IMG/VR virus record: IMGVR_UViG_3300017605_001304
Coordinates: 1-64,000 of that record
Strand: one strand, 5' to 3'
DNA length: 64,000 bases
Origin: a virus
The notes beneath the pieces were generated by a model. The model was not told the DNA's origin. It made no database searches and saw nothing but the letters and a program-made list of their open reading frames with translations. Of this stretch, positions 1,242-49,564 are shown piece after piece (the stretch's first letter is position 1; each line of letters begins with the position of its first letter). Both the position numbers and the translations under genes were made by a program.

Positions 1242-1330
1242 GACGAACCTGACGAACTTGGCGAACCTGCTTGCACCCAGTTGCGCCTGATTGCACCCGG
1301 TTGCATGGGATTGCACCGGTTCGCACTTCA
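1242..1330. repeat. Intergenic periodic repeats: 3 x 9-bp G[AG]CGAAC[CT]T, then 6 x 10-bp TTGC-initiated units
   Basis: gacgaacct/gacgaactt/ggcgaacct at 1242, 1251, 1260; ttgcacccag/ttgcgcctga/ttgcacccgg/ttgcatggga/ttgcaccggt/tcgcacttca at 1271-1330. Confidence 0.85.
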
Positions 1331-3424
1331 CGGCGTGAGCACCCAGATCGGCGAGCTCCAGGCGACGTGAAAGTCCGCCTGCACGAGGCGGACGTAGTAG
1401 GCGTGGTAGACCCCGTCGTGCAGGGGCAGCGGGTCGGACCAGCCCCAGGAGATGTCGGAGCTGGCGAAGGTCGTGGTCGCGACGACCTGATCGTCGCGGA
1501 CGATGTCGGCCTTGGTGAAGGTCGGCCGGTCGTTGATCCCGATGCCGGCTGCGTGGCCTTCGACCGAGAAGGCCGGTGCCGAGCAGATCTCCTCGTCGCC
1601 CATCTCGGCACCGTTCGCCGTGGTCCAGTCGAGGAAGATGCGAGCACCGGTCGTCCCGTACGTGTGGCGCTTCCGGATCGCGTCCCAGATGCGGGCTCTC
1701 TTGTTGCCGACGGCACGCGAGGCTCGCACGAAGGCGAGGCCGGTCCGCTCGTACTCGACGCCCGCTTCCACGATGTTGCCGCTGTACCCGTGCTGGTCGC
1801 TGCCGGCGATGATGCCGAAGCGATACCCGAGCTTGAGAGCGGCACGCACGGACGCGAGGTTGCTCAGGTCGCGCTGGTTCGCGACGTCGTGATGGAGCGG
1901 GTAGTCGTCTGGGCTGGTCGCTTGCGCGAGCCAGACTTCGGACGAGCCGTGCGCCGAGTAGATCTCGACGACGGGCTGGTAGTTCGCGTCGAGCTCGCTG
2001 CCCCACTCGTACGGGGCGTTGATGGGCGGCTGGCCGTGCAGGTTGAAGTTCCAGAGCGTGTGATGCGGGATCCCGAAGTGCTGGCTGTCCGTCGGGCCCG
2101 TCTTCAGGTAGCTCAGGAAGTTGTCGGTCGTGTTCTGCAGGACCGGACCCGGCGTCTCGTAGCCGAGGTAGGTGTCCTCCGTGATCGCGGCGTCCATCGT
2201 CAGGTTGCGGTACACGACGTGGCGGTGCGAGCCGGGCAGCGTCCACTCGTATCCCGGAAAGCAGACGAACGTGTCCCAGCCGACCTTCGACTGGAAGAGC
2301 GCCGCCTGTAGGTTCGCATGCGCGAAGCCCGACATGTAGTTCTGGCTGTGCTGCACGACGGTGCCGAAGTCCTGGCAGTCGTCGTAGAGATCCCGCCAGC
2401 AGTAGTCGTCGGTGACCGCAGCGTGGCCGCCTTCGGCCGCGTGCCGCTGGAAGTCGCCGCACAAGATCTCCAAGTCGTCGGTCGACGGCAGCACGGAGAT
2501 CGGGTTGCTGAGGCCCTGCACGCCGTAGAGCGTCGCCGTGCCCGGCGGGCCGGCGTACACGTGGAACGTCTGCAGGCCGGGCGTCGAGAGCGTCGCCCAG
2601 AACTCTTGCACGCCGTGGTCGAAGGCCGGCGGCACCTGCGGGTACGTGACCAGCAGGTCCGAGCAGAGGATGCTGACCGGCGAGGAGTAGTCCTCGACCG
2701 GCAGGATCGACGTGCCACCTGGATTGTCCGCGCCCTGCACCGCTCGAACCGTGACGCGGAACGCGACGCCAGCTCGTGCCGTGACCGGACCGTTCACGAT
2801 GAAGCGCTCGGCCACGGCGCCGGTAAAGAGGATCGCAGGCAGGTCCGCCGACGAGAGCGCGTACTGCCCGTTGCCGGCGAAGTCCTCGGCGACGTAGACC
2901 TGCGGAGAGCCCGGGTTCCACGAGAGCGTCATGCCGGCTCCCGAGCCGAGCGTGATCGTGATCACCGTGCCGGTCACGAGCTTCGCGCCGGTCGTGATCT
3001 TGAGCAGCACCTCGTGGCCGTAGTTCGCGCGGTAGATCTTCGTGAGCGTCAGCGGCTGGCCGTTCGACGTCGACGCCGTGCAGTAGTTCGCGCCGTTGGG
3101 ATTCGTGATCTGGAAGCGGCCGAGCGGGAATCTCGCCATCGCTTGTGCAGGCCCGAGCAGCCAGCCCGAGTTCACCGCGTAGGCCGGGTTGCTCGTGTCC
3201 GGCGTCGGGTAGCCGAGCCCGATCATGATCCCGCCGTTCGCCTTGATCGGCGTCGCACCGACCGTGTACTTGACGACGAACGTCTGGTGGCCGACGGCCG
3301 GATCCGCCTCGTAGTCCGGCCACAGGCCGAGCGGCTCTTGGCCGGGCTGGATCGAGACGCGATTCGGAGTCACCGTGACTGTCGGCACCTGCAACAGCAA
3401 GGCACACACGAGTGCTGCGAACAT
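1328..3424 (-). CDS. Secreted PHP-fold metallohydrolase (DUF3604/CehA-McbA-like)
   Basis: Signal-peptide-like N-terminus; motifs GYEWT, HRHVVY, IPHH, VEIYSAHG, GIIAGSDQH, YGTTGARI, C-terminal AWSSPIW; strong RBS. Confidence 0.75.
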   Translation of the reverse strand: MFAALVCALLLQVPTVTVTPNRVSIQPGQEPLGLWPDYEADPAVGHQTFVVKYTVGATPIKANGGIMIGLGYPTPDTSNPAYAVNSGWLLGPAQAMARFPLGRFQITNPNGANYCTASTSNGQPLTLTKIYRANYGHEVLLKITTGAKLVTGTVITITLGSGAGMTLSWNPGSPQVYVAEDFAGNGQYALSSADLPAILFTGAVAERFIVNGPVTARAGVAFRVTVRAVQGADNPGGTSILPVEDYSSPVSILCSDLLVTYPQVPPAFDHGVQEFWATLSTPGLQTFHVYAGPPGTATLYGVQGLSNPISVLPSTDDLEILCGDFQRHAAEGGHAAVTDDYCWRDLYDDCQDFGTVVQHSQNYMSGFAHANLQAALFQSKVGWDTFVCFPGYEWTLPGSHRHVVYRNLTMDAAITEDTYLGYETPGPVLQNTTDNFLSYLKTGPTDSQHFGIPHHTLWNFNLHGQPPINAPYEWGSELDANYQPVVEIYSAHGSSEVWLAQATSPDDYPLHHDVANQRDLSNLASVRAALKLGYRFGIIAGSDQHGYSGNIVEAGVEYERTGLAFVRASRAVGNKRARIWDAIRKRHTYGTTGARIFLDWTTANGAEMGDEEICSAPAFSVEGHAAGIGINDRPTFTKADIVRDDQVVATTTFASSDISWGWSDPLPLHDGVYHAYYVRLVQADFHVAWSSPIWVLTP

Positions 3425-3441
3425 GTCGATCCTCCTCCTAA

Positions 3442-3475
3442 CGGGTTAGATACGCGTTTCGAGGAGGTTCAAGGT
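3442..3475 (-). promoter_or_regulatory. Putative promoter TTGAAC-N18-TAACCC upstream of the hydrolase
   Basis: Minus strand accttgaacctcctcgaaac matches 49258-49277 at 19/20 positions. Confidence 0.5.
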
Positions 3476-3520
3476 AGCGAACCTCTATTTCAGTCGACAG
3501 CGGTAGCTGGGGTGAAAAAC

Positions 3521-3538
3521 GATCTGTATTACAGGATC
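3521..3538. promoter_or_regulatory. Degenerate copy of the GACCTGTA-N-TACAGGTC operator
   Basis: gatctgtattacaggatc contains the core CTGTA-T-TACAG. Confidence 0.55.
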
Positions 3539-3559
3539 TGGCTCCCCGGAGACCGATCT

Positions 3560-3778
3560 CTAAGTGACTGGCGTTCCTGAACTTACGATCGTCATTTTCG
3601 TGTAGCCTCGAACCTCCGGGAAACACGTACTGACGAGGTTCGAGGTGGATGCCCCTCGCAGCCGCATGCCGAGTCGGCTGAGCTCCATCAGGACATCGAG
3701 CTCGATGACGATCTGGTTCTGCAGCTTGACGGGCAGGACCGCAGTCGTCGGCCAGGGCAGCGGGGAGCGAAGGCTCAT
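3560..3778 (-). CDS. Micro-protein, ELSxxGxRL family with NLVSTCFPEVR tail
   Basis: 72 aa; ATGA coupling to the upstream ORF; paralogous to neighbours. Confidence 0.6.
   Translation of the reverse strand: MSLRSPLPWPTTAVLPVKLQNQIVIELDVLMELSRLGMRLRGASTSNLVSTCFPEVRGYTKMTIVSSGTPVT
3606..3645. repeat. Inverted-repeat element CCTCGAACCTC-N18-GAGGTTCGAGG (copy 1)
   Basis: Perfect 11-bp arms at 3606-3616 and 3635-3645; spacer cgggaaacacgtactgac. Confidence 0.85.
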
Positions 3779-3927
3779 AGGACGCCATCCAGCACGGTCG
3801 AAGTGGACACCCGTCGTAACCGAGTGCCTAAGCGGCTGAGCTCCATGAAGACGTCGAAGCGGTCGTTGAGCAACAGGCTCAGCTCGGCAGGGAGCTGCAG
3901 GCGCAGCGCGTAGCGGCAGGTCATCAT
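3775..3927 (-). CDS. Micro-protein, ELSxxGxRL family
   Basis: 50 aa; DVFMELSRLGTRLR is near-identical to the downstream paralog; ATGA overlaps. Confidence 0.6.
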   Translation of the reverse strand: MMTCRYALRLQLPAELSLLLNDRFDVFMELSRLGTRLRRVSTSTVLDGVL

Positions 3928-4064
3928 CTTCCCGCACCCAGCAGGCGGAACAGGACGAGGTCGCACGGCTGCGCCGCTACGCCGGGAGAGAAGCGGCCCC
4001 AGACGCTGGAGATCAGCCGGTTGACGGCGTTGTTGAAGAGCCGCGGCGGCAAGGGAGTCATCAT
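3924..4064 (-). CDS. Micro-protein, RLxxxxWxxFxPG family
   Basis: 46 aa, AVNRLISSVWGRFSPG. Confidence 0.55.
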   Translation of the reverse strand: MMTPLPPRLFNNAVNRLISSVWGRFSPGVAAQPCDLVLFRLLGAGR

Positions 4065-4210
4065 CTTCGCGCTCCCAGCAGCTCGTCGAAGACCACGTGG
4101 ATGGACACGGACGCGAGGCCCGGCCGGAAGGCGTTCCAGATGTCGGCGATCAGCCACCGCGCATCGTCCGACAGAAGGTAGAGCAGGCGCACGTCCAGCT
4201 TGGACTTCAT
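4061..4210 (-). CDS. Micro-protein, WxxFxPG family (not in ORF track)
   Basis: Hand translation MKSKLDVRLLYLLSDDARWLIADIWNAFRPGLASVSIHVVFDELLGARR; ATGA overlaps at both ends. Confidence 0.6.
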   Translation of the reverse strand: MKSKLDVRLLYLLSDDARWLIADIWNAFRPGLASVSIHVVFDELLGARR

Positions 4211-4350
4211 CGGCGGATGTCCAGCATGACAGCAAGGATCACCCCCGAGAACGTCGCCGCTTGACCCGGCGCGAAGAAGACGTTCCAGAGATGCTCGGTC
4301 AGTCGATCTAGGTCGACGGACACGAACCAGTAGTTGCCGTCCACCTTCAT
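4207..4350 (-). CDS. Micro-protein, WxxFxPG family
   Basis: 47 aa, DLDRLTEHLWNVFFAPG. Confidence 0.55.
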   Translation of the reverse strand: MKVDGNYWFVSVDLDRLTEHLWNVFFAPGQAATFSGVILAVMLDIRR

Positions 4351-4541
4351 CGGTCTCGAACCTCCTGGAAACACGTACTGACGATGTTCACGAGGGACGC
4401 GGTGAGTAGCCGCATGCCGCTGTTCGTGAGCAGGCTGAGGGCACGGAGGCCGCGGTACTGATAGACCATCCACTGCAGGCGGTCAGGGAGCTCCTGCGCC
4501 GGTCGCTTCAGCAGGGCGAACTTCGGGTTGGGCTTCATCAC
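4347..4541 (-). CDS. Micro-protein with GMRL and NIVSTCFQEVR tail
   Basis: 64 aa; paralog of 3560-3778. Confidence 0.55.
   Translation of the reverse strand: MMKPNPKFALLKRPAQELPDRLQWMVYQYRGLRALSLLTNSGMRLLTASLVNIVSTCFQEVRDR
4355..4394. repeat. Inverted-repeat element copy 2 (right arm degenerate)
   Basis: ctcgaacctc-ctggaaacacgtactgac-gatgttcacgag. Confidence 0.8.
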
Positions 4542-4705
4542 CGTGCGTCCAGCAGGGCGCGTAGAACTGCGCGTACGGCCTGGGTCTGCTGATTGCCGTG
4601 CGTGAAGAAGTCCCAGTACGTCCCCACCAGCCGGTGGACAAGGACCGAGCCCTTCTTCAGCGGCAGCTCCGCGATGGGCTTACGCGTCGAGCGTTTGTGC
4701 GGCAC
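4538..4705 (-). CDS. Micro-protein, RLxxxxWxxFxxG family (not in ORF track)
   Basis: Hand translation MPHKRSTRKPIAELPLKKGSVLVHRLVGTYWDFFTHGNQQTQAVRAVLRALLDAR. Confidence 0.55.
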   Translation of the reverse strand: MPHKRSTRKPIAELPLKKGSVLVHRLVGTYWDFFTHGNQQTQAVRAVLRALLDAR

Positions 4706-4892
4706 GCCTCGATCTCCCGGCTCGAACCTTCTGGAAACACGAATCGATGAGGTTCGAGAGATTCCCCCGCATGTTGATTTCCCCGAGGTCCAAGCCGTAC
4801 CACGCCCACGTCACGGGGATGGCCCGGAGCTCGGGCGGCAACGGGGTGGACGGTAGCCGCATCACCGCGTGATGCTTGCGCGTGTCGGTCAC
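4680..4892 (-). CDS. Micro-protein with NLIDSCFQKVR tail
   Basis: 70 aa; same C-terminal module as 3560-3778 and 4347-4541. Confidence 0.55.
   Translation of the reverse strand: MTDTRKHHAVMRLPSTPLPPELRAIPVTWAWYGLDLGEINMRGNLSNLIDSCFQKVRAGRSRRAAQTLDA
4721..4758. repeat. Inverted-repeat element copy 3
   Basis: ctcgaacctt-ctggaaacacgaatcgat-gaggttcgag, 18-bp spacer. Confidence 0.8.
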
Positions 4893-5038
4893 GTCTCACC
4901 TCGCAGCGGCTGCAGGGCCGCGTTCCAGAGCTTGGTCCCGATTCCACTCAGCTCGTAGAACGGCCACAGCTCGCCCGGCCACAGCTCGCCGTAGAGGAGC
5001 TCCAGCACCCAGACGGGCGGGGCGGGCCGGGGATTCAC
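4889..5038 (-). CDS. Micro-protein, hybrid LWP + YELSGIGTKL
   Basis: 49 aa; GTGA coupling. Confidence 0.55.
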   Translation of the reverse strand: MNPRPAPPVWVLELLYGELWPGELWPFYELSGIGTKLWNAALQPLRGET

Positions 5039-5169
5039 GGCAGCCCCCGCAGCAGGAAGAGGGTGGGGATCTCGCCGGCCCGCGGCCATCCACCGAAATC
5101 GCGCCAGAGGCTGCAGACCAGCCAGAAGACCTCATCCGGTACACGCGGAATCGGAACGATGGTCCTCAT
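5035..5169 (-). CDS. Micro-protein, WLxxxLWxxF family
   Basis: 44 aa, MRTIVPIPRVPDEVFWLVCSLWRDFGG. Confidence 0.5.
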   Translation of the reverse strand: MRTIVPIPRVPDEVFWLVCSLWRDFGGWPRAGEIPTLFLLRGLP

Positions 5170-5381
5170 GGATCTCGAACCTCTCGGAAACGAGGTTTCT
5201 GCATGGACCCTTCCGGGAACAGCCAACTGTAGAGCTCCCCGGCAGCCGGGATCGAGCGCGTCTCCAAGACGTCGGTGAGAGCCGCCACGCAAGCCGGCCC
5301 GGCGCGACCCGGCCAGAAGTAGAACCAGAGGTCCGACAAGATCCGGTCTAAGACCTCGGTCGTCAAGGGCGGCACGAACAT
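5166..5381 (-). CDS. Micro-protein, WxxFxPG family with FREVR tail
   Basis: 71 aa, VLDRILSDLWFYFWPG; contains a shortened repeat copy ctcgaacctc-tcggaaac-gaggtttc at 5174-5199. Confidence 0.55.
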   Translation of the reverse strand: MFVPPLTTEVLDRILSDLWFYFWPGRAGPACVAALTDVLETRSIPAAGELYSWLFPEGSMQKPRFREVRDP

Positions 5382-5382
5382 G

Positions 5383-5532
5383 TCAGACCCTCTTGCAGGC
5401 CGCGTGGAGCGCTTGCAGCGTAGCGTGGCGTAGCCGAGCCCCGATGCCGCTGAGCTCGTAGCAGGGCCACAGCGCGCCGGTCAGGAGCCGGGCCATCGAC
5501 AGGGGAAGCGCAGCGGGGGGCCGGGCGATCAC
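5383..5532 (-). CDS. Micro-protein, LWP + YELSGIGARL
   Basis: 49 aa from GTG 5532; paralog of 4889-5038. Confidence 0.55.
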   Translation of the reverse strand: MIARPPAALPLSMARLLTGALWPCYELSGIGARLRHATLQALHAACKRV

Positions 5533-5681
5533 GTGAAGCGCACTTCCAGGAGGCGCGACAAGGCGAACGGGAAGTTCCAGCTCACCATCTCGTACGTCAC
5601 CAGATCCACGAAGCCCGGCAGGAGCCGGACCACCAAGTTCACCACCTCGGTCGGTACTTGCGGTTCGTTGGCGAGGTTCAT
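5529..5681 (-). CDS. Micro-protein (not in ORF track)
   Basis: Hand translation MNLANEPQVPTEVVNLVVRLLPGFVDLVTYEMVSWNFPFALSRLLEVRFT; coupled at both ends. Confidence 0.5.
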   Translation of the reverse strand: MNLANEPQVPTEVVNLVVRLLPGFVDLVTYEMVSWNFPFALSRLLEVRFT

Positions 5682-5782
5682 TCCCAAAGCTCCTCCATGA
5701 GCTCAAGGACTTCCAGCGCCGGCACGCTCTGGATGATCGTGTGGTCCACGTGCGGGCCCCTCACCAGTTCTTGAACACTCAT
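5678..5782 (-). CDS. Micro-protein, LxxGP family
   Basis: 34 aa, MSVQELVRGPH. Confidence 0.45.
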   Translation of the reverse strand: MSVQELVRGPHVDHTIIQSVPALEVLELMEELWE

Positions 5783-5946
5783 CGCAACAGCTCCCGCAGG
5801 GCGTTGCTGACCGCCGCGGTCGGGGCCAGCAACTCCAGGATGCGCGACTCCTCCAGCCACACGATGAAGCGGCGCGACTGCTCGGCCGTGTCCGGACCCA
5901 CGGCATCCGGTCCATGCACGAGCCGGAAGACTAGAGGGGCAACCAC
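5779..5946 (-). CDS. Micro-protein, LxxGP family (not in ORF track)
   Basis: Hand translation MVAPLVFRLVHGPDAVGPDTAEQSRRFIVWLEESRILELLAPTAAVSNALRELLR. Confidence 0.45.
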   Translation of the reverse strand: MVAPLVFRLVHGPDAVGPDTAEQSRRFIVWLEESRILELLAPTAAVSNALRELLR

Positions 5947-6101
5947 CAGACCATCCTCTTCAACGCCACGTCGAAGGCGTCGCGCAGGGACATCTCACAG
6001 TCGAGGAGCTCGTCCCAAACGACGTCGCACGGAGGCGATTCTAGCCCCTTGGGGAGGCGCTCCGGTCCGTAGAGCAGCCGGATGCGGGCAACGCGATTCA
6101 C
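5931..6101 (-). CDS. Micro-protein, LxxGP family (not in ORF track)
   Basis: Hand translation MNRVARIRLLYGPERLPKGLESPPCDVVWDELLDCEMSLRDAFDVALKRMVWWLPL. Confidence 0.45.
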   Translation of the reverse strand: MNRVARIRLLYGPERLPKGLESPPCDVVWDELLDCEMSLRDAFDVALKRMVWWLPL

Positions 6102-6247
6102 TTCAAGACCTCCGTCAACGCGAACACGAAGAGGTGATCGTGCTGGACGTCGGTGATGATACGCGACCAGACGAACAGCATCAGCACGCTGAACTCGGGG
6201 CTGACGTACGCGTGGTTCGGACGCGCCGCGATGTACACGGAGTTCAT
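6098..6247 (-). CDS. Micro-protein
   Basis: 49 aa, MNSVYIAARP...ALTEVLK; ATGA coupling. Confidence 0.5.
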   Translation of the reverse strand: MNSVYIAARPNHAYVSPEFSVLMLFVWSRIITDVQHDHLFVFALTEVLK

Positions 6248-6393
6248 GCTTCGAAGAGCTCCTGAAACGCGTACCGGAACGAGAGCGACAGCTCGCCCGG
6301 ACGAAACGCCCACCAGAGCGCCGCGACCAGCCGGTTCACCGCGACCGGAGCTCGCGGGTCCATGTAGCCGCGCATGCTGTGGACCGGGTTCAT
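6244..6393 (-). CDS. Micro-protein, WxxFxPG family
   Basis: 49 aa; AVNRLVAALWWAFRPG matches 3924-4064. Confidence 0.6.
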   Translation of the reverse strand: MNPVHSMRGYMDPRAPVAVNRLVAALWWAFRPGELSLSFRYAFQELFEA

Positions 6394-6560
6394 GCGAGTA
6401 GGTCGCCGTAAGCGTTCCTGTTGCTGAACCATGGCACCTCGCACTCCGACGGGAAGAGGCCGCCCGCGGACGCGCCCGCGTCGAGGTAGACGCCCCACAA
6501 GCGAGCCGAGAACAGGCGCGGCCAGCCGGTGTGCCAATCAGCTCTAACGACGCGCAGCAT
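6390..6560 (-). CDS. Micro-protein, WxxxWPxxFxxxLW family (not in ORF track)
   Basis: Hand translation MLRVVRADWHTGWPRLFSARLWGVYLDAGASAGGLFPSECEVPWFSNRNAYGDLLA. Confidence 0.55.
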   Translation of the reverse strand: MLRVVRADWHTGWPRLFSARLWGVYLDAGASAGGLFPSECEVPWFSNRNAYGDLLA

Positions 6561-6561
6561 G

Positions 6562-6768
6562 CTAGATCCCCGCGAAGAGGTTGAGATTCAGCAGCCAGTA
6601 GCCCGCCGGAACCCCGTTCCGTAGCTCCCTGCGGTGCTCCTCCGAAAGGACGTCGCGGCAGGCGGTGTAGAACTCCCACCACAACCCCTCATCGAAGGGA
6701 CGGGGCCAGCCGTCGTGCCACTTCCGCTGCGCCGTGGCCAGCGGCTCCTCGTTCGAGCGGAGGCTCAT
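6562..6768 (-). CDS. Micro-protein, WxxxWPxxF family
   Basis: WHDGWPRPFDEGLWWEFY. Confidence 0.55.
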   Translation of the reverse strand: MSLRSNEEPLATAQRKWHDGWPRPFDEGLWWEFYTACRDVLSEEHRRELRNGVPAGYWLLNLNLFAGI

Positions 6769-6769
6769 G

Positions 6770-6976
6770 TCACAGGCTCCGGAGGATCGTCTCAACGAGG
6801 CTCCAGGGGAAGTCGAGACGGTGCATCCAACTGCCCTGACGCGGCTGCTTCATGGCGTACCTAAAGTACGGGTCCCACATCTCGTCCAGGAACGGCGCTG
6901 GCCAACTGCTGAACCACGTGATCGGCAGACGCCGGCTGCGCAGGCCGCGCTTATTAGTGGAGTCCGGGAGCAGCAC
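6770..6976 (-). CDS. Micro-protein, WxxxWPxxF family
   Basis: WFSSWPAPFLDEMWDPYF. Confidence 0.55.
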   Translation of the reverse strand: MLLPDSTNKRGLRSRRLPITWFSSWPAPFLDEMWDPYFRYAMKQPRQGSWMHRLDFPWSLVETILRSL

Positions 6977-7226
6977 TCGGCACCTCTTCAGGCAGAGTGT
7001 TCAACCACGCGGCCGCGGTGTCGAGCTCCTCGCGCTCTTCCTTCGCGGCGAGTCGCTTGGTCGCCCACAGCGCCGACATCTCGATCGAGACGAGGCGCTG
7101 CTCTTCCTTGGCGATCAGGTCACGCAGGATCTCTTTAGGACTCTTCATCCGCGAACTCCGCCTGGGGCTTGGGGACGAACGACTCGTCCCGGAACACGTA
7201 GACGCACCTCGGATAGTACCGCTCAT
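6954..7226 (-). CDS. Small coiled-coil hypothetical protein (start 7226 or 7148)
   Basis: Helical, charged ORF in operon. Confidence 0.5.
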   Translation of the reverse strand: MSGTIRGASTCSGTSRSSPSPRRSSRMKSPKEILRDLIAKEEQRLVSIEMSALWATKRLAAKEEREELDTAAAWLNTLPEEVPSAAPGLH

Positions 7227-7582
7227 CGTCCCTTGAGGACCACGTCGTCCGGGTGGGCGTTCGAGAGATCCTTCTGCAGCGGATCGTCGTCGGTCGTGAA
7301 GTGATGCGCGGGCGACGATCCGCTCCGCTTCGGTTCTCCGTAGAAGGCCCCGTCACCGGTGAAGCGCGTCTCGTCACAAGAACGCGTCATCAGCAAGACG
7401 ACCATCGTGAACAGAGAGGCGACCACGCCAGTAACGCCGGCCGCCTGCGCGCTCCCGTCGCTCTGCCGCGCCTTGTAGATGGCACGCAGACTCAGCGGGA
7501 TTCCGATGAAGATACACGCGAGCGCCGCGAACAGCAGCAGCTCGTGCGGCGGGGTCGACATGATCTCGCGAAACGTGCTCAT
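7223..7582 (-). CDS. Two-TM membrane protein
   Basis: Two hydrophobic segments; RBS. Confidence 0.6.
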   Translation of the reverse strand: MSTFREIMSTPPHELLLFAALACIFIGIPLSLRAIYKARQSDGSAQAAGVTGVVASLFTMVVLLMTRSCDETRFTGDGAFYGEPKRSGSSPAHHFTTDDDPLQKDLSNAHPDDVVLKGR

Positions 7583-7600
7583 GCTCCTTCTCCTCCTGAC

Positions 7601-7879
7601 CTAAATGGAATCCTCGATCTCGATCGAACGCAGCGAGCGGGCAGGCCCGAGTCCGAGGCTCTCGCGAACACGAAGGGAGCTGATCTTCTCCCGTTCGCCG
7701 TCGAACTCTTCGAGCCAGCCGCGCTCGCGGCCGTATTGGTCCCGCTCCAGGACGAGCCACGACTGGCGCTCGCTCCGCTTGCCGGTGCTGCGCGAGATGC
7801 TCTGGACGAAGATCGACTTGCAGCCGACCTCTTCCCACCGAGGCCGGAAGTGGATCGCGCGTAGGAGTTTCCTCAGCAT
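7601..7879 (-). CDS. Hypothetical protein
   Basis: MLRKLLRAIHF..., overlapping the phosphoesterase stop. Confidence 0.5.
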   Translation of the reverse strand: MLRKLLRAIHFRPRWEEVGCKSIFVQSISRSTGKRSERQSWLVLERDQYGRERGWLEEFDGEREKISSLRVRESLGLGPARSLRSIEIEDSI

Positions 7880-8436
7880 GGTTCCGCCTTCAGCGCCGCG
7901 CGGCGCTCCTTGAGCAGGTCCCGTAGGAGCTGGGGTCGCCACTCCTGGCACTGCTCGGCTGATACGCAGATGAACCGCCGATCCTCCAGCGCATGCGTGT
8001 GCATGTGCCCGTGCACGTTCAGCTCGAAGCGGTGAAACTGATTCGGGTTGACCGGGATGTGCGTCAGCAGGCAACCGTCGAACTCGAAGCAGGCGCGGAC
8101 CTTCGAGAACAGCTTGTCGTAGGTCGCGACGGGCCGCTGGTCGTGGTTGCCGAGCGCGAGCTTCTTCGTGCCCTTCAGCTCCGCGACGCGGTCCACCTGG
8201 AACACGTCGCCCAGCACGTAGACCACGTCACGCTTCGTCACGGTCGCGTTCCAGGCTGCGACCAGGGCGTCGTCGTGCTCCTGCGTCGACGCGAAGCCGC
8301 GCACCCCGGCCACCTTGACGTGTCCGAAGTGCAGGTCTGCGATCACGAAGACGCGTCCACCGGACTCGGCCAACGGAATCCCTTTCAGTTGGGGCCTGCT
8401 GCATCCACGCCGGGCCCCGGCGACGCTCGCACCCAT
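7873..8436 (-). CDS. Calcineurin-like metallophosphoesterase (likely start TTG 8373)
   Basis: ADLHFGH, LGDV, GNHD, THIP, HGHMH motifs. Confidence 0.9.
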   Translation of the reverse strand: MGASVAGARRGCSRPQLKGIPLAESGGRVFVIADLHFGHVKVAGVRGFASTQEHDDALVAAWNATVTKRDVVYVLGDVFQVDRVAELKGTKKLALGNHDQRPVATYDKLFSKVRACFEFDGCLLTHIPVNPNQFHRFELNVHGHMHTHALEDRRFICVSAEQCQEWRPQLLRDLLKERRAALKAEPC

Positions 8437-8536
8437 GTCCTAGGTACACGGTCAGTTCCGGGCGGTGCCCGTTACGCAGTCGGCCCGTCCCGCTGCAGCT
8501 TCAGGAGGCGTAGCTCAGGTGGCATCGGCTTGGAAT

Positions 8537-8578
8537 GAAACAGGGGCCGATACCCATGTGCTGGATACCGGCCCCCTG
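8537..8578 (-). terminator. Rho-independent terminator
   Basis: GGGGCCGGTATC...GGTATCGGCCCC stem followed by TGTTTC on the minus strand. Confidence 0.55.
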
Positions 8579-8610
8579 GAGTCACGTAGGCTCCGTGGTG
8601 TCGCCTTCGA

Positions 8611-11233: not shown

Positions 11234-11255
11234 GGGCTCCTCCTCTTCCTTTGCG

Positions 11256-11474
11256 TTAGAAGGTTCGATCCACCGGCCAGTTGACCGCGCGACGCAACGC
11301 ACGGATCACGAAGGCCGTCAAGGTTCGGTTCTTCTCCAGCTTCGCGTGCTCCGCTGCTTTCTCGATCGCTTCCCGAAGGTCCGGAGGGATACGCACCACG
11401 AGATGCCGGTTCCCGTACACGCGCCTACCGTCTCTGTCGACTCGCGGCTCGACGTCTCCGCTCGGAGCGGCCAT
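11256..11474 (-). CDS. Ribbon-helix-helix (Arc/HicB-like) DNA-binding protein
   Basis: HLVVRIPPDLREAIEKAA...RTLTAFVIRAL. Confidence 0.7.
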   Translation of the reverse strand: MAAPSGDVEPRVDRDGRRVYGNRHLVVRIPPDLREAIEKAAEHAKLEKNRTLTAFVIRALRRAVNWPVDRTF

Positions 11475-11495: not shown

Positions 11496-11523
11496 AGCGT
11501 ACCGTAATCCACATAGGCGTCAA
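11496..11523 (-). promoter_or_regulatory. sigma70-like promoter TTGACG-N16-TACGCT
   Basis: Immediately upstream of the RHH gene; spacer contains a GTAATCCA operator-like core. Confidence 0.5.
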
Positions 11524-12410: not shown

Positions 12411-12839
12411 TCACTTCTTCAGCGCGTAGAGCCCGCGCGAGACCTTCTCGACGTCCTTCATCTCGGTCAGCCGCTGACCGACGATCACCGCGAAGCTCTT
12501 CGACTTCGTCTCGTAGCCTGCGGTCAGCACCGCGGCCGCGAGGTCCGCGAGCTTCATCGGCTCCTTCGCGTCCTTCAGCACGTCGCGGATCTTGTTGTGC
12601 AGCGCACCCGTCCCTGCACTCTTCGCCGTGGTCGTGGTGCTCGTGGTCTTGGTCTTGCGACCCGTCGCACGACGGATGATCCGCTGGCCACCATCCGCAC
12701 CGAGCTCCTGATTGAGCTTTTCCAGCGAAGTCTGCAGCGCGTCGCGCCGCTTCACGAGGACCTCGATCTTGCGCTTGCGCGCAACGAGGTGACGCTCGAT
12801 CTGCGCGATCGGCATGCTCTCCAGAACCGAACTGTCCAC
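12411..12839 (-). CDS. Coiled-coil + basic linker + winged-helix DNA-binding protein (nucleoid-associated-like)
   Basis: N-terminal coil, K/T-rich linker, C-terminal wHTH-like IRDVL..PMKLADLAAAV..GY.T.S..F......L......RGLY. Confidence 0.7.
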   Translation of the reverse strand: MDSSVLESMPIAQIERHLVARKRKIEVLVKRRDALQTSLEKLNQELGADGGQRIIRRATGRKTKTTSTTTTAKSAGTGALHNKIRDVLKDAKEPMKLADLAAAVLTAGYETKSKSFAVIVGQRLTEMKDVEKVSRGLYALKK

Positions 12840-16656: not shown

Positions 16657-16997
16657 GGCTTAGCTCCAGGCAGGAAGCCGGCGATCGTGGTGATCAACTG
16701 CTGCGCGAGCGCCGGGTCGAGCGACGAGGACTTGATCAAGCGGACGAGGTCCTGCTCCACGTGCTGGGCATTCGTCCGGTTCACCTCAAGCTGGACGCGG
16801 ACCTTGGTGATCTCCGCGTTGCCGGGGTTCTTGGCCTCCAGCAGGTTGAGCGTGGCGGTCATGGCCGAATAGAGCTCGGCGTGCAACTGCGCCAGCGTCG
16901 CCGAGGCTTCCACCATCGCCTGCGTCTGCTCCGACGGGTGGAACAGCGTGCAGCTCGGCAGGAGCATCAGCAGCGCGCAACTCCTGAGACTTCTCAT
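16653..16997 (-). CDS. Putative lipoprotein
   Basis: MRSLRSCALLMLLPSC lipobox-like sequence, AAGGAG RBS. Confidence 0.55.
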   Translation of the reverse strand: MRSLRSCALLMLLPSCTLFHPSEQTQAMVEASATLAQLHAELYSAMTATLNLLEAKNPGNAEITKVRVQLEVNRTNAQHVEQDLVRLIKSSSLDPALAQQLITTIAGFLPGAKP

Positions 16998-49134: not shown

Positions 49135-49257
49135 GCCCTACCTGTCAGTATCGAAAACGGAGATTCGAAAATCTTCGCTCGCTACAAGTCGCTGGTAGGG
49201 AAGGTCTTATGGCCGTTCAGGCGCGCTGCACCCAGGTTCAGTCGTTCGGACGAGTGA

Positions 49258-49297
49258 ACCTTGAACCTCCTGGAAACCCACGTTAACCTAGGTTCGA
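49258..49297 (+). promoter_or_regulatory. Promoter TTGAAC-N17-TAACCT inside a GAACCT...AGGTTC element
   Basis: ttgaac ctcctggaaacccacgt taacct aggttcga. Confidence 0.6.
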
Positions 49298-49391
49298 CAA
49301 GTGCGAGGGGTTCGCTCGGCTGTCCGTGCTCATCTCCTCCTGCGGAAGTCCTCCGCACCGCCGCTGCGAGCTCCTCTACTTCGCTGTTCGA

Positions 49392-49426
49392 GCCCCGGGT
49401 GCCCGCTCAGGCGCCCGGGGCGTTTT
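49392..49426 (+). terminator. Rho-independent terminator
   Basis: 12-bp stem GCCCCGGGTGCC/GGCGCCCGGGGC then GTTTT. Confidence 0.6.
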
Positions 49427-49564
49427 CATGCTGCGGGCCTGCCCGGTCGTCCGCCCCCGGGCCTGGAAACAACGCGACCCCTGCAGGAGGACCTGCAGGG
49501 GTCGTTGTCCGTCTACCTTGGGGAGGTGGTTGACTCGCGGTCCGCGCGACGGCATGCTGACCGG

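Follow-up and report, generated by a model that had tools for sequence, protein, structure and literature searches.

What does a palindrome of about 40 bases do when it recurs at the 3′ ends of very small genes in a phage? The question is raised by an uncultured T4-like phage, IMG/VR record IMGVR_UViG_3300017605_001304, which is linear, 149,155 bp long and estimated to be 70% complete. The window, that is, the whole stretch of DNA analysed here, is its first 64 kb (positions 1 to 64,000). The DNA is 65% G+C, the minus strand carries nearly all genes of the record, and a Pfam scan identified a T4-type portal (Portal_T4, E = 8e−47). We find that the palindrome belongs to a family of six members which, among the sequences searched, is private to this phage. 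The family is real and in our view regulatory, and the likeliest of the readings considered is a DNA operator-type site, to which we give a probability of about 0.4.

Invariant in all six copies, here c1 to c6, is an asymmetric box, CTYGAACCT-N4-GAAAC (GTTTC-N4-AGGTTCRAG on the other strand). Four copies lie within micro-open reading frames (micro-ORFs) and two in non-coding DNA:

c1, 3606-3645: arms of 11 bp that match perfectly, with 18 nt between them; near the C-terminal end of micro-ORF 3778-3560 (minus strand), which continues for 16 codons beyond it.
c2, 4355-4394: box and loop as in c1 except for 1 nt, far arm degenerate (two mismatches and one G.U); at the end of ORF 4538-4347 (minus strand).
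c3, 4721-4758: 9-bp arms, loop unlike that of c1 at five positions; inside ORF 4892-4680 (minus strand).
c4, 5174-5199: 10-nt loop deletion and 1-nt insertion, with a 6-bp stem left; at the end of ORF 5381-5166 (minus strand).
c5, 49258-49297, plus strand: non-coding; the box coincides with TTGAAC (49261-49266)-N17-TAACCT (49284-49289), with extra half-sites at 49234 and 49256.
c6, 3449-3485, minus strand: inverted and non-coding; TTGAAC (3472-3467)-N18-TAACC (3448-3444), the ATG of a 698-amino-acid (aa) gene following after 20 nt.

All copies reported in the first-pass annotation were recovered at their positions, including 49258-49297 and the opposite-strand copy placed near 3456-3475 (c6, here 3449-3485). 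The family stands clear of chance. The pattern GAACCT-N14-24-AGGTTC occurs three times in the window against 0.01 expected, and none of 100 shuffles reached three. When a 30-nt weight matrix of the better-conserved half was run over the whole record, it returned six sites only, scoring 35.3-43.7, the runner-up scoring 15.6; a 19-nt box matrix recovered the identical six. Copies c1 to c5 share one orientation, on minus-strand transcription units, and c6 alone is inverted.

Outside this phage the element was found at chance level only. Two element patterns searched against the 2.9 million viral contigs of IMG/VR gave chance matches, none with a GGAAAC spacer; a metagenome set gave three chance matches, and 185,579 species genomes gave nine scattered ones, about the chance estimate. 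No close relative of the phage was found: neither its portal nor the 698-aa protein has close relatives in IMG/VR, and the best GenBank portals are ~25% identical. A phosphoesterase with 69% identity was found in an unrelated 44-kb phage that lacks the array, and homologues of the 698-aa gene (76-38% identity) occur in other contexts, without the element.

The array that hosts c1 to c4 comprises about 22 minus-strand micro-ORFs of 34-119 codons between 7582 and 3560. They have a coding signal (G+C of 0.78-0.88 at third codon positions, and higher at first than at second positions), and most are connected by ATGA or GTGA stop/start overlaps. They form two paralogous families, A and B, each confined to the array. 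A 64-aa micro-ORF had no homologue among 5.8 billion proteins, the array had no blastn match in GenBank phages, and the window had none to Rfam or tRNA models. The array ORFs are translationally coupled, and element copies follow groups of two to five overlapping ORFs. Copies c1 to c4 provide the last 13 codons of the family-B ORFs named above, the stop codon lying 9-46 nt past the core. The earlier remark that the array copies sit near micro-ORF 3′ ends in a single orientation was thus borne out, the micro-ORFs themselves being on the minus strand.

Is it the peptide or the nucleotides that are conserved? In the three full-length array copies (c1 to c3), the 13 codons contain 10 variable columns, distributed 6/4/0 over codon positions 1/2/3, and each pair of copies shows no synonymous versus 4-7 non-synonymous codon differences. 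Over the 13 codons that immediately precede the element, differences between the two closest paralogues number 4, 6 and 6 by codon position. Rare codons are fixed within the element (GTT, 7.0% of Val codons in the phage; CGA, 7.7% of Arg codons), and across it peptides are equally conserved in all three sense frames, of which the downstream ORFs use two. The element is conserved at 84-89%, whereas its flanks are 67% identical or unalignable. Finally, c4, hosted by a degenerate C-terminal extension of ORF 5381-5166, retains its far arm though the reading frame is shifted. Because third positions do not change, rare codons are fixed, all frames are equally conserved and the far arm of c4 persists across frames, the constraint acts on nucleotides and not on the peptide. 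The first-pass annotation had suspected that the CFxEVR peptide tail merely reflects a DNA site, and had proposed comparing synonymous-site conservation between arms and flanks; the counts by codon position and the fixed rare codons support a nucleic-acid site as the source of the tail, and conservation at the amino-acid level alone does not account for the result.

Which nucleotides are held fixed? The box contains two GAAMC half-sites (GAACC and GAAAC), arranged as direct repeats 10 bp apart, and the columns without change in any copy are GTTTCC and AGGTTC. The variable N4 overlaps the GG of a GGAGG resembling a Shine-Dalgarno (SD) sequence, with the variants GGAGG, GAAGG and AGAGG. Given a variable SD-like GG between invariant GTTTCC and AGGTTC, a bipartite protein site fits better than a ribosome-binding site. 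The inverted partner that completes the palindrome is much less regular. It lies 18, 18, 18, 8 and 21 nt upstream in c1 to c5, having decayed in c2, and in c6 it is a heptamer (3479-3485) located 8 nt downstream, not upstream, where it forms a 7-bp stem with an 8-nt loop. Across the family the helix is 82% paired, with covariation not above that of shuffles. Local RNA folds compared with shuffles gave z scores of −1.2, +0.3, +0.4 and −0.25, weakly better for c1 only; the hairpin is the minimum-free-energy fold of c1, and the corresponding folds of c2 and c3 leave the arms unused. The variable distance and arrangement of the arms, together with the lack of covariation, mean that the palindrome is not supported as a conserved RNA structure.

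The two non-coding copies are promoter-like, as had been noticed before. TTGAAC-N16-18-TAACC occurs twice in the record, at c5 and c6 only, against an expectation of 0.00. A relaxed promoter model, TTGANV-N16-18-TAnnnT, has 12 matches in the genome, eight of them intergenic (13% of the genome), and c5 is among the eight. About 100 nt past c5 there is a strong plus-strand intrinsic terminator with no plus-strand gene ahead of it. The inversion of c6 gives it the orientation that points at the adjacent 698-aa gene. Three features are associated with these copies:

49296-49430, plus strand: candidate RNA of ~130 nt downstream of c5, reaching to the terminator at 49392-49421.
1328-3424, minus strand: 698-aa DUF3604-like gene, faced by c6.
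3451-3473 (c6) with 3607-3629 (c1 core): 23-bp inverted repeat enclosing 133 bp.

The candidate RNA folds with −66.9 kcal/mol (z = −3.66; 0 of 200 shuffles equally stable) into a long closing stem with an exposed CU-rich, anti-SD-like loop, and matches no Rfam family. Pairing of this RNA with the element cores was considered and rejected, the energies of −21 to −26 kcal/mol being no better than those for ordinary gene starts (mean −30 kcal/mol). The 133-bp segment holds, at about 3521, an operator-like palindrome of the other promoter regulon of the phage, which here has no promoter and lies in a transcribed spacer.

We propose, tentatively, that the six copies are recognition sites of one sequence-specific regulator, of phage or possibly host origin, acting on DNA. 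This reading is preferred because an asymmetric, bipartite and nucleotide-constrained box sits over two promoters and at junctions inside a transcription unit; we infer protein binding, action on DNA rather than RNA, and an effect on transcription. It is further supported by the wide score gap between the six sites and the rest of the 149 kb, and by the palindrome at 3521, which is a precedent in this phage for a promoterless operator in a transcribed spacer. The functional unit would be CTYGAACCT-N4-GAAAC, with its two GAAMC half-sites one helical turn apart, and the palindrome would result from a third half-site, AGGTTC, which is inverted and loosely spaced. In c5 and c6 the box would fill the −35 element and spacer of TTGAAC-N17/18-TAACCY promoters and serve as an operator or activator site, the c5 promoter driving the ~130-nt structured RNA and the c6 promoter facing the 698-aa gene. 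At c1 to c4, the box stands without promoter hexamers in the transcribed array, in one orientation, at the junction after a family-B micro-ORF; a protein bound there might block or pause transcription through the array, or adjust it in some other way, as at a stoperator. The CFxEVR-containing C-terminal peptide would then be what the box happens to spell in that frame. The suggestion of a site for a dimeric regulator, made in the first-pass annotation, thus survives in part: a symmetric dimer is a poor fit to variable arm spacing, an everted c6 and an asymmetric invariant block, and a DNA-binding regulator of other geometry is the best reading.

A known arrangement of this kind is that of the operator/stoperator sites of cluster A mycobacteriophages, asymmetric 13-nt sites present in more than 20 copies per genome, over −35 elements and at gene junctions (PMC9283540). 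Here, too, an asymmetric site is found at promoter −35 elements and at junctions in transcribed regions, with an orientation tied to transcription (PMC9283540). The differences are that six sites are seen in 70% of a genome rather than more than 20, that the box is bipartite and 15-19 nt long instead of 13, and that it has an inverted partner half-site. Stoperators are served by a cognate monomeric two-domain repressor; Pfam scans gave no repressor candidate here, no dedicated model having been searched. In addition, stoperators are known from temperate siphoviruses, unlike this large phage, in which no integrase or recombinase is found in the 70% sequenced and which is therefore probably lytic.

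Several observations weigh against a regulator binding DNA. No binding protein was identified, and nothing usable came from Pfam scans of the small proteins encoded nearby. Of the six sites, four fall within 1.6 kb and descended from one another together with their host ORFs, so that their positions and orientations are not independent. The distance from the core to the following start codon is exactly 10 nt in both c2 and c4, a spacing more directly explained by a role in RNA, and orientation depends on the class of site: c5 and c6 run in the sense direction of their promoters, c1 to c4 antisense to transcription. The −10 hexamer of c6 is TAACCC, without the last T, and its spacer is 18 nt, making it a weak promoter at best. 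Comparative support is lacking, the element being present in no other sequence searched.

The most serious alternative, though in our estimate an unlikely one, is that the element works in mRNA. In the minus-strand transcript the core would be a long SD sequence (AGGAGGU) and the far arm a mimic of its complement (ACCUC), and the hairpin would keep the next micro-ORF's ribosome-binding site hidden as long as the upstream micro-ORF is not translated, thereby making coupling obligate, or would serve as a signal for processing or stability; the 23-bp helix between c1 and c6 would be an RNase III-type site separating the array from the 698-aa gene. All of c1 to c5 are oriented with transcription, and the junctions of c2 and c4 are equal in length and nearly identical in sequence up to an ATGA, in which the next ATG (4350 after c2, 5169 after c4) overlaps the stop codon and lies 10 nt past the SD-like sequence, GGAGG in c2. 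c1 folds as a hairpin, the 23-bp helix is the predicted minimum-free-energy fold of the minus-strand RNA (z = −3.36), and one of the arm changes in c2 is C-to-U, which retains a G.U pair on that RNA. Other observations weaken this reading. Apart from c1, local folds are no better than shuffles and lack covariation, with the arms of c2 and c3 unused, and the SD purines are precisely the variable part of the core. After c3, the next ORF starts from GTG 4705, 22 nt past the core, and has its own SD sequence; c1 is followed, at 16 nt, by an 11-codon ORF only, c5 and c6 by no start codon at all, and in mRNA c6 would be present as the complement. Programmed −1 frameshifting at the core was rejected, the slippery U UUC CCG being found in c1 but not in c2 or c3. 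T4 RegA and RegB models gave no match, but the controls were silent as well and the search is uninformative.

A comparable motif is known from cluster K mycobacteriophages, in which start-associated sequences (SAS) and extended SAS (ESAS) combine an asymmetric, SD-containing motif upstream of some start codons with imperfect inverted repeats and a variable spacer; their orientation is nearly always the same, one copy alone being on the opposite strand, and their function is unknown (PMC3203893). Our element shares the asymmetric SD-containing motif, the near-uniform orientation with one opposite-strand copy, and inverted repeats with a variable spacer (PMC3203893). It differs in that only two (at most four) of six copies are located at SD distance from a start codon (10 nt in c2 and c4), that the motif lies inside the upstream ORF, and that the SD purines are its least conserved part.

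A second alternative dispenses with a dedicated factor. The copies could be inherited junction modules, in which 3′ ends of family-B ORFs were fused to old promoter-derived sequence and tandemly duplicated with the cassette; the element would be retained by serving two overlapping ORFs, and its chief effect would be on evolution, since direct repeats of 38 nt would allow the homologous recombination system of the phage to delete, duplicate or circularise cassettes of two to five ORFs. Consistent with this view, each of c1 to c4 sits at the C-terminal end of a family-B ORF (for c4, the degenerate extension of ORF 5381-5166), the homology between paralogous cassettes stops exactly at the downstream edge of the element, and the tandem duplicate o21/o22 breaks in the far arm. 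There is also a second recurrent junction module (3924-4705), CTGCTGGA followed 6-10 nt on by ATGA, which closes most family-A micro-ORFs as well as family-B ORF 3927-3775, in line with shuffling of modules among families at short junction motifs. Against it stand the far better conservation of the element than of its flanks and a substitution pattern that shows direct constraint on nucleotides; the surroundings of c5 and c6 have no micro-ORF homology, and the longest exact run common to two copies, 18 nt, is short for homologous exchange. We regard this explanation as rather doubtful.

Shuffling of this kind has a counterpart in promoter-early stem-loop cassettes (PeSLs), which consist of a promoter and a stem-loop and mediate shuffling and the formation of mini-circles in hyperplastic regions of T4-type phages (PMC2839356, PMC4122927). 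Similarities include a short repeated motif with a sigma-70-type promoter and a stem-loop (PMC2839356, PMC4122927), the occurrence of four copies in an orphan array of 22 small ORFs, with direct repeats flanking ORF groups, and the T4-like portal. The element lies, as PeSLs do, in a hyperplastic small-ORF region of a T4-type phage; a sigma-70-type promoter pointing with the genes is not found, the hexamers being present in two of six copies only (c5 and c6). Moreover, the array copies are antisense and inside coding sequence rather than intergenic, there is no U-tract, and the stem (6-11 bp) encloses the promoter instead of adjoining it and folds no better than shuffles. One may imagine a PeSL-type mobile regulatory cassette that became absorbed into coding sequence in this distant, high-GC T4-like phage, so that a single 40-bp sequence would be operator, peptide tail and the joint at which modules of two to five ORFs are shuffled, but we judge such a combination improbable.

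Even less probable are antisense promoters in the array, another suggestion of the first-pass annotation. According to it, the four coding copies would fire on the plus strand, perhaps dependent on an activator bound to the GAACC/GAAAC repeat, and the antisense RNA would silence the micro-ORFs, much as lambda has CII-dependent promoters inside genes. These copies do share a family with c5 and c6, which are promoter-like, and the −35 position lies between direct half-sites spaced 10 bp apart. Yet all four have TCGAAC instead of TTGAAC at −35, with no TAnnnT at 16-18 nt; the sole −10-like hexamer, TACTGA, lies at a distance of 14 nt and does not end in T, and a promoter scan of 3000-8600 came out empty.

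Site-specific recombination sites of the integron attC or shufflon sfx type, excising, inserting or inverting micro-ORF cassettes as the first-pass annotation had also proposed, are very improbable: despite imperfect palindromes at cassette 3′ ends in uniform orientation, and an invertible-promoter geometry formed by the c1/c6 inverted repeat around a 133-bp regulatory segment beside a gene, the 149-kb record, estimated to be 70% complete, contains no tyrosine recombinase (PF00589, for which control genomes were all positive), serine recombinase (PF00239) or Y1 transposase (PF01797), and the collections searched hold related elements at chance level only. With respect to attC, whose outer core consensus is RYYYAAC ... 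GTTRRRY, each arm (CTCGAAC and GTTCGAG) deviates at two of seven positions, the ORFs are coupled and do not form free-standing cassettes, the sites, located within coding sequence, come after two to five such ORFs, and there is neither an integrase nor a sign of mobility. In contrast to a shufflon or invertible segment, where inverted sites flank the segments and an Rci, Hin or Gin-type recombinase acts on them, the array copies are direct repeats and only c1 and c6 are inverted. Repetitive extragenic palindromic (REP) sequences, their hairpin-forming doublets (REPINs) and miniature inverted-repeat transposable elements (MITEs), which go with high copy numbers and a RAYT or transposase, are set apart by a phage copy number of only six, by the absent PF01797 and by species-genome matches at chance.

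Candidate regulators and further half-sites were also noted. A ribbon-helix-helix protein encoded at 11254-11474 (minus strand), with a weak TacA1-like antitoxin match (E = 3e−4) and its own promoter TTGACG-N16-TACGCT at 11496-11523, is a candidate DNA-binding regulator. Other candidates for DNA-binding proteins of the phage are encoded by a tandem-HTH gene at about 51.8-52.4 kb, a winged-helix gene at 12411-12839 and the gene at 98-1183. In favour of the preferred reading of a regulator site, clusters of half-sites are restricted to regulatory spots, at 1245/1263, 3465/3479 and four sites in 49234-49290. At 1242-1270 (plus strand), three direct 9-bp repeats contain a half-site of the CGAACCT type, corresponding to the first block of the box; their relation to the family is only possible. 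The repeats precede TTGC units spaced every 10 bp (1242-1330), upstream of the gene for a 361-aa protein (98-1183) that has no Pfam match. A chromosomal parS site was considered here and rejected, GAAACACG having only partial likeness to a parS half-site and the neighbouring 361-aa protein no ParB Pfam match.

As DNA, the 23-bp inverted repeat of c1 and c6 has the geometry of an invertible segment, with no invertase in the record. The DUF3604-like (metallohydrolase-like) gene beside it is shared, with 38-76% identity, by several large phages that are uncultured, and in two of them (L131 and L132) it adjoins genes for thyX, dCMP deaminase and ribonucleotide reductase, which suggests a role in nucleotide metabolism or otherwise related to DNA rather than a structural one. 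A distant relative, L133, whose DUF3604-like gene is 46% identical, has palindrome-framed promoters at 6894-6940 and 16843-16889, in which 9-bp arms, GGGTACACA and TGTGTACCC, surround TTGACC-N16-TACTGT or TAGTGT; the same is seen in L134. Phages of this group may habitually frame promoters with inverted repeats. The L133 contig also carries a Cas12f1/TnpB-like gene.

Taken by itself, this is a small motif family private to one phage, locally useful and of a kind that is not surprising. It is, however, a clean case of a conserved peptide motif that is an artefact of a nucleic-acid signal, and as such a caution for the annotation of micro-proteins. If the array copies were also recombination joints, the PeSL idea would extend well beyond enterobacterial, Vibrio and cyanobacterial T4-like phages. 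In uncultured phages with unmatched proteins, short recurrent motifs offer one of the few ways to approach gene regulation, and the element described here would mark a small regulon in which a candidate small RNA is joined by the conserved DUF3604-like gene and the orphan micro-gene array.

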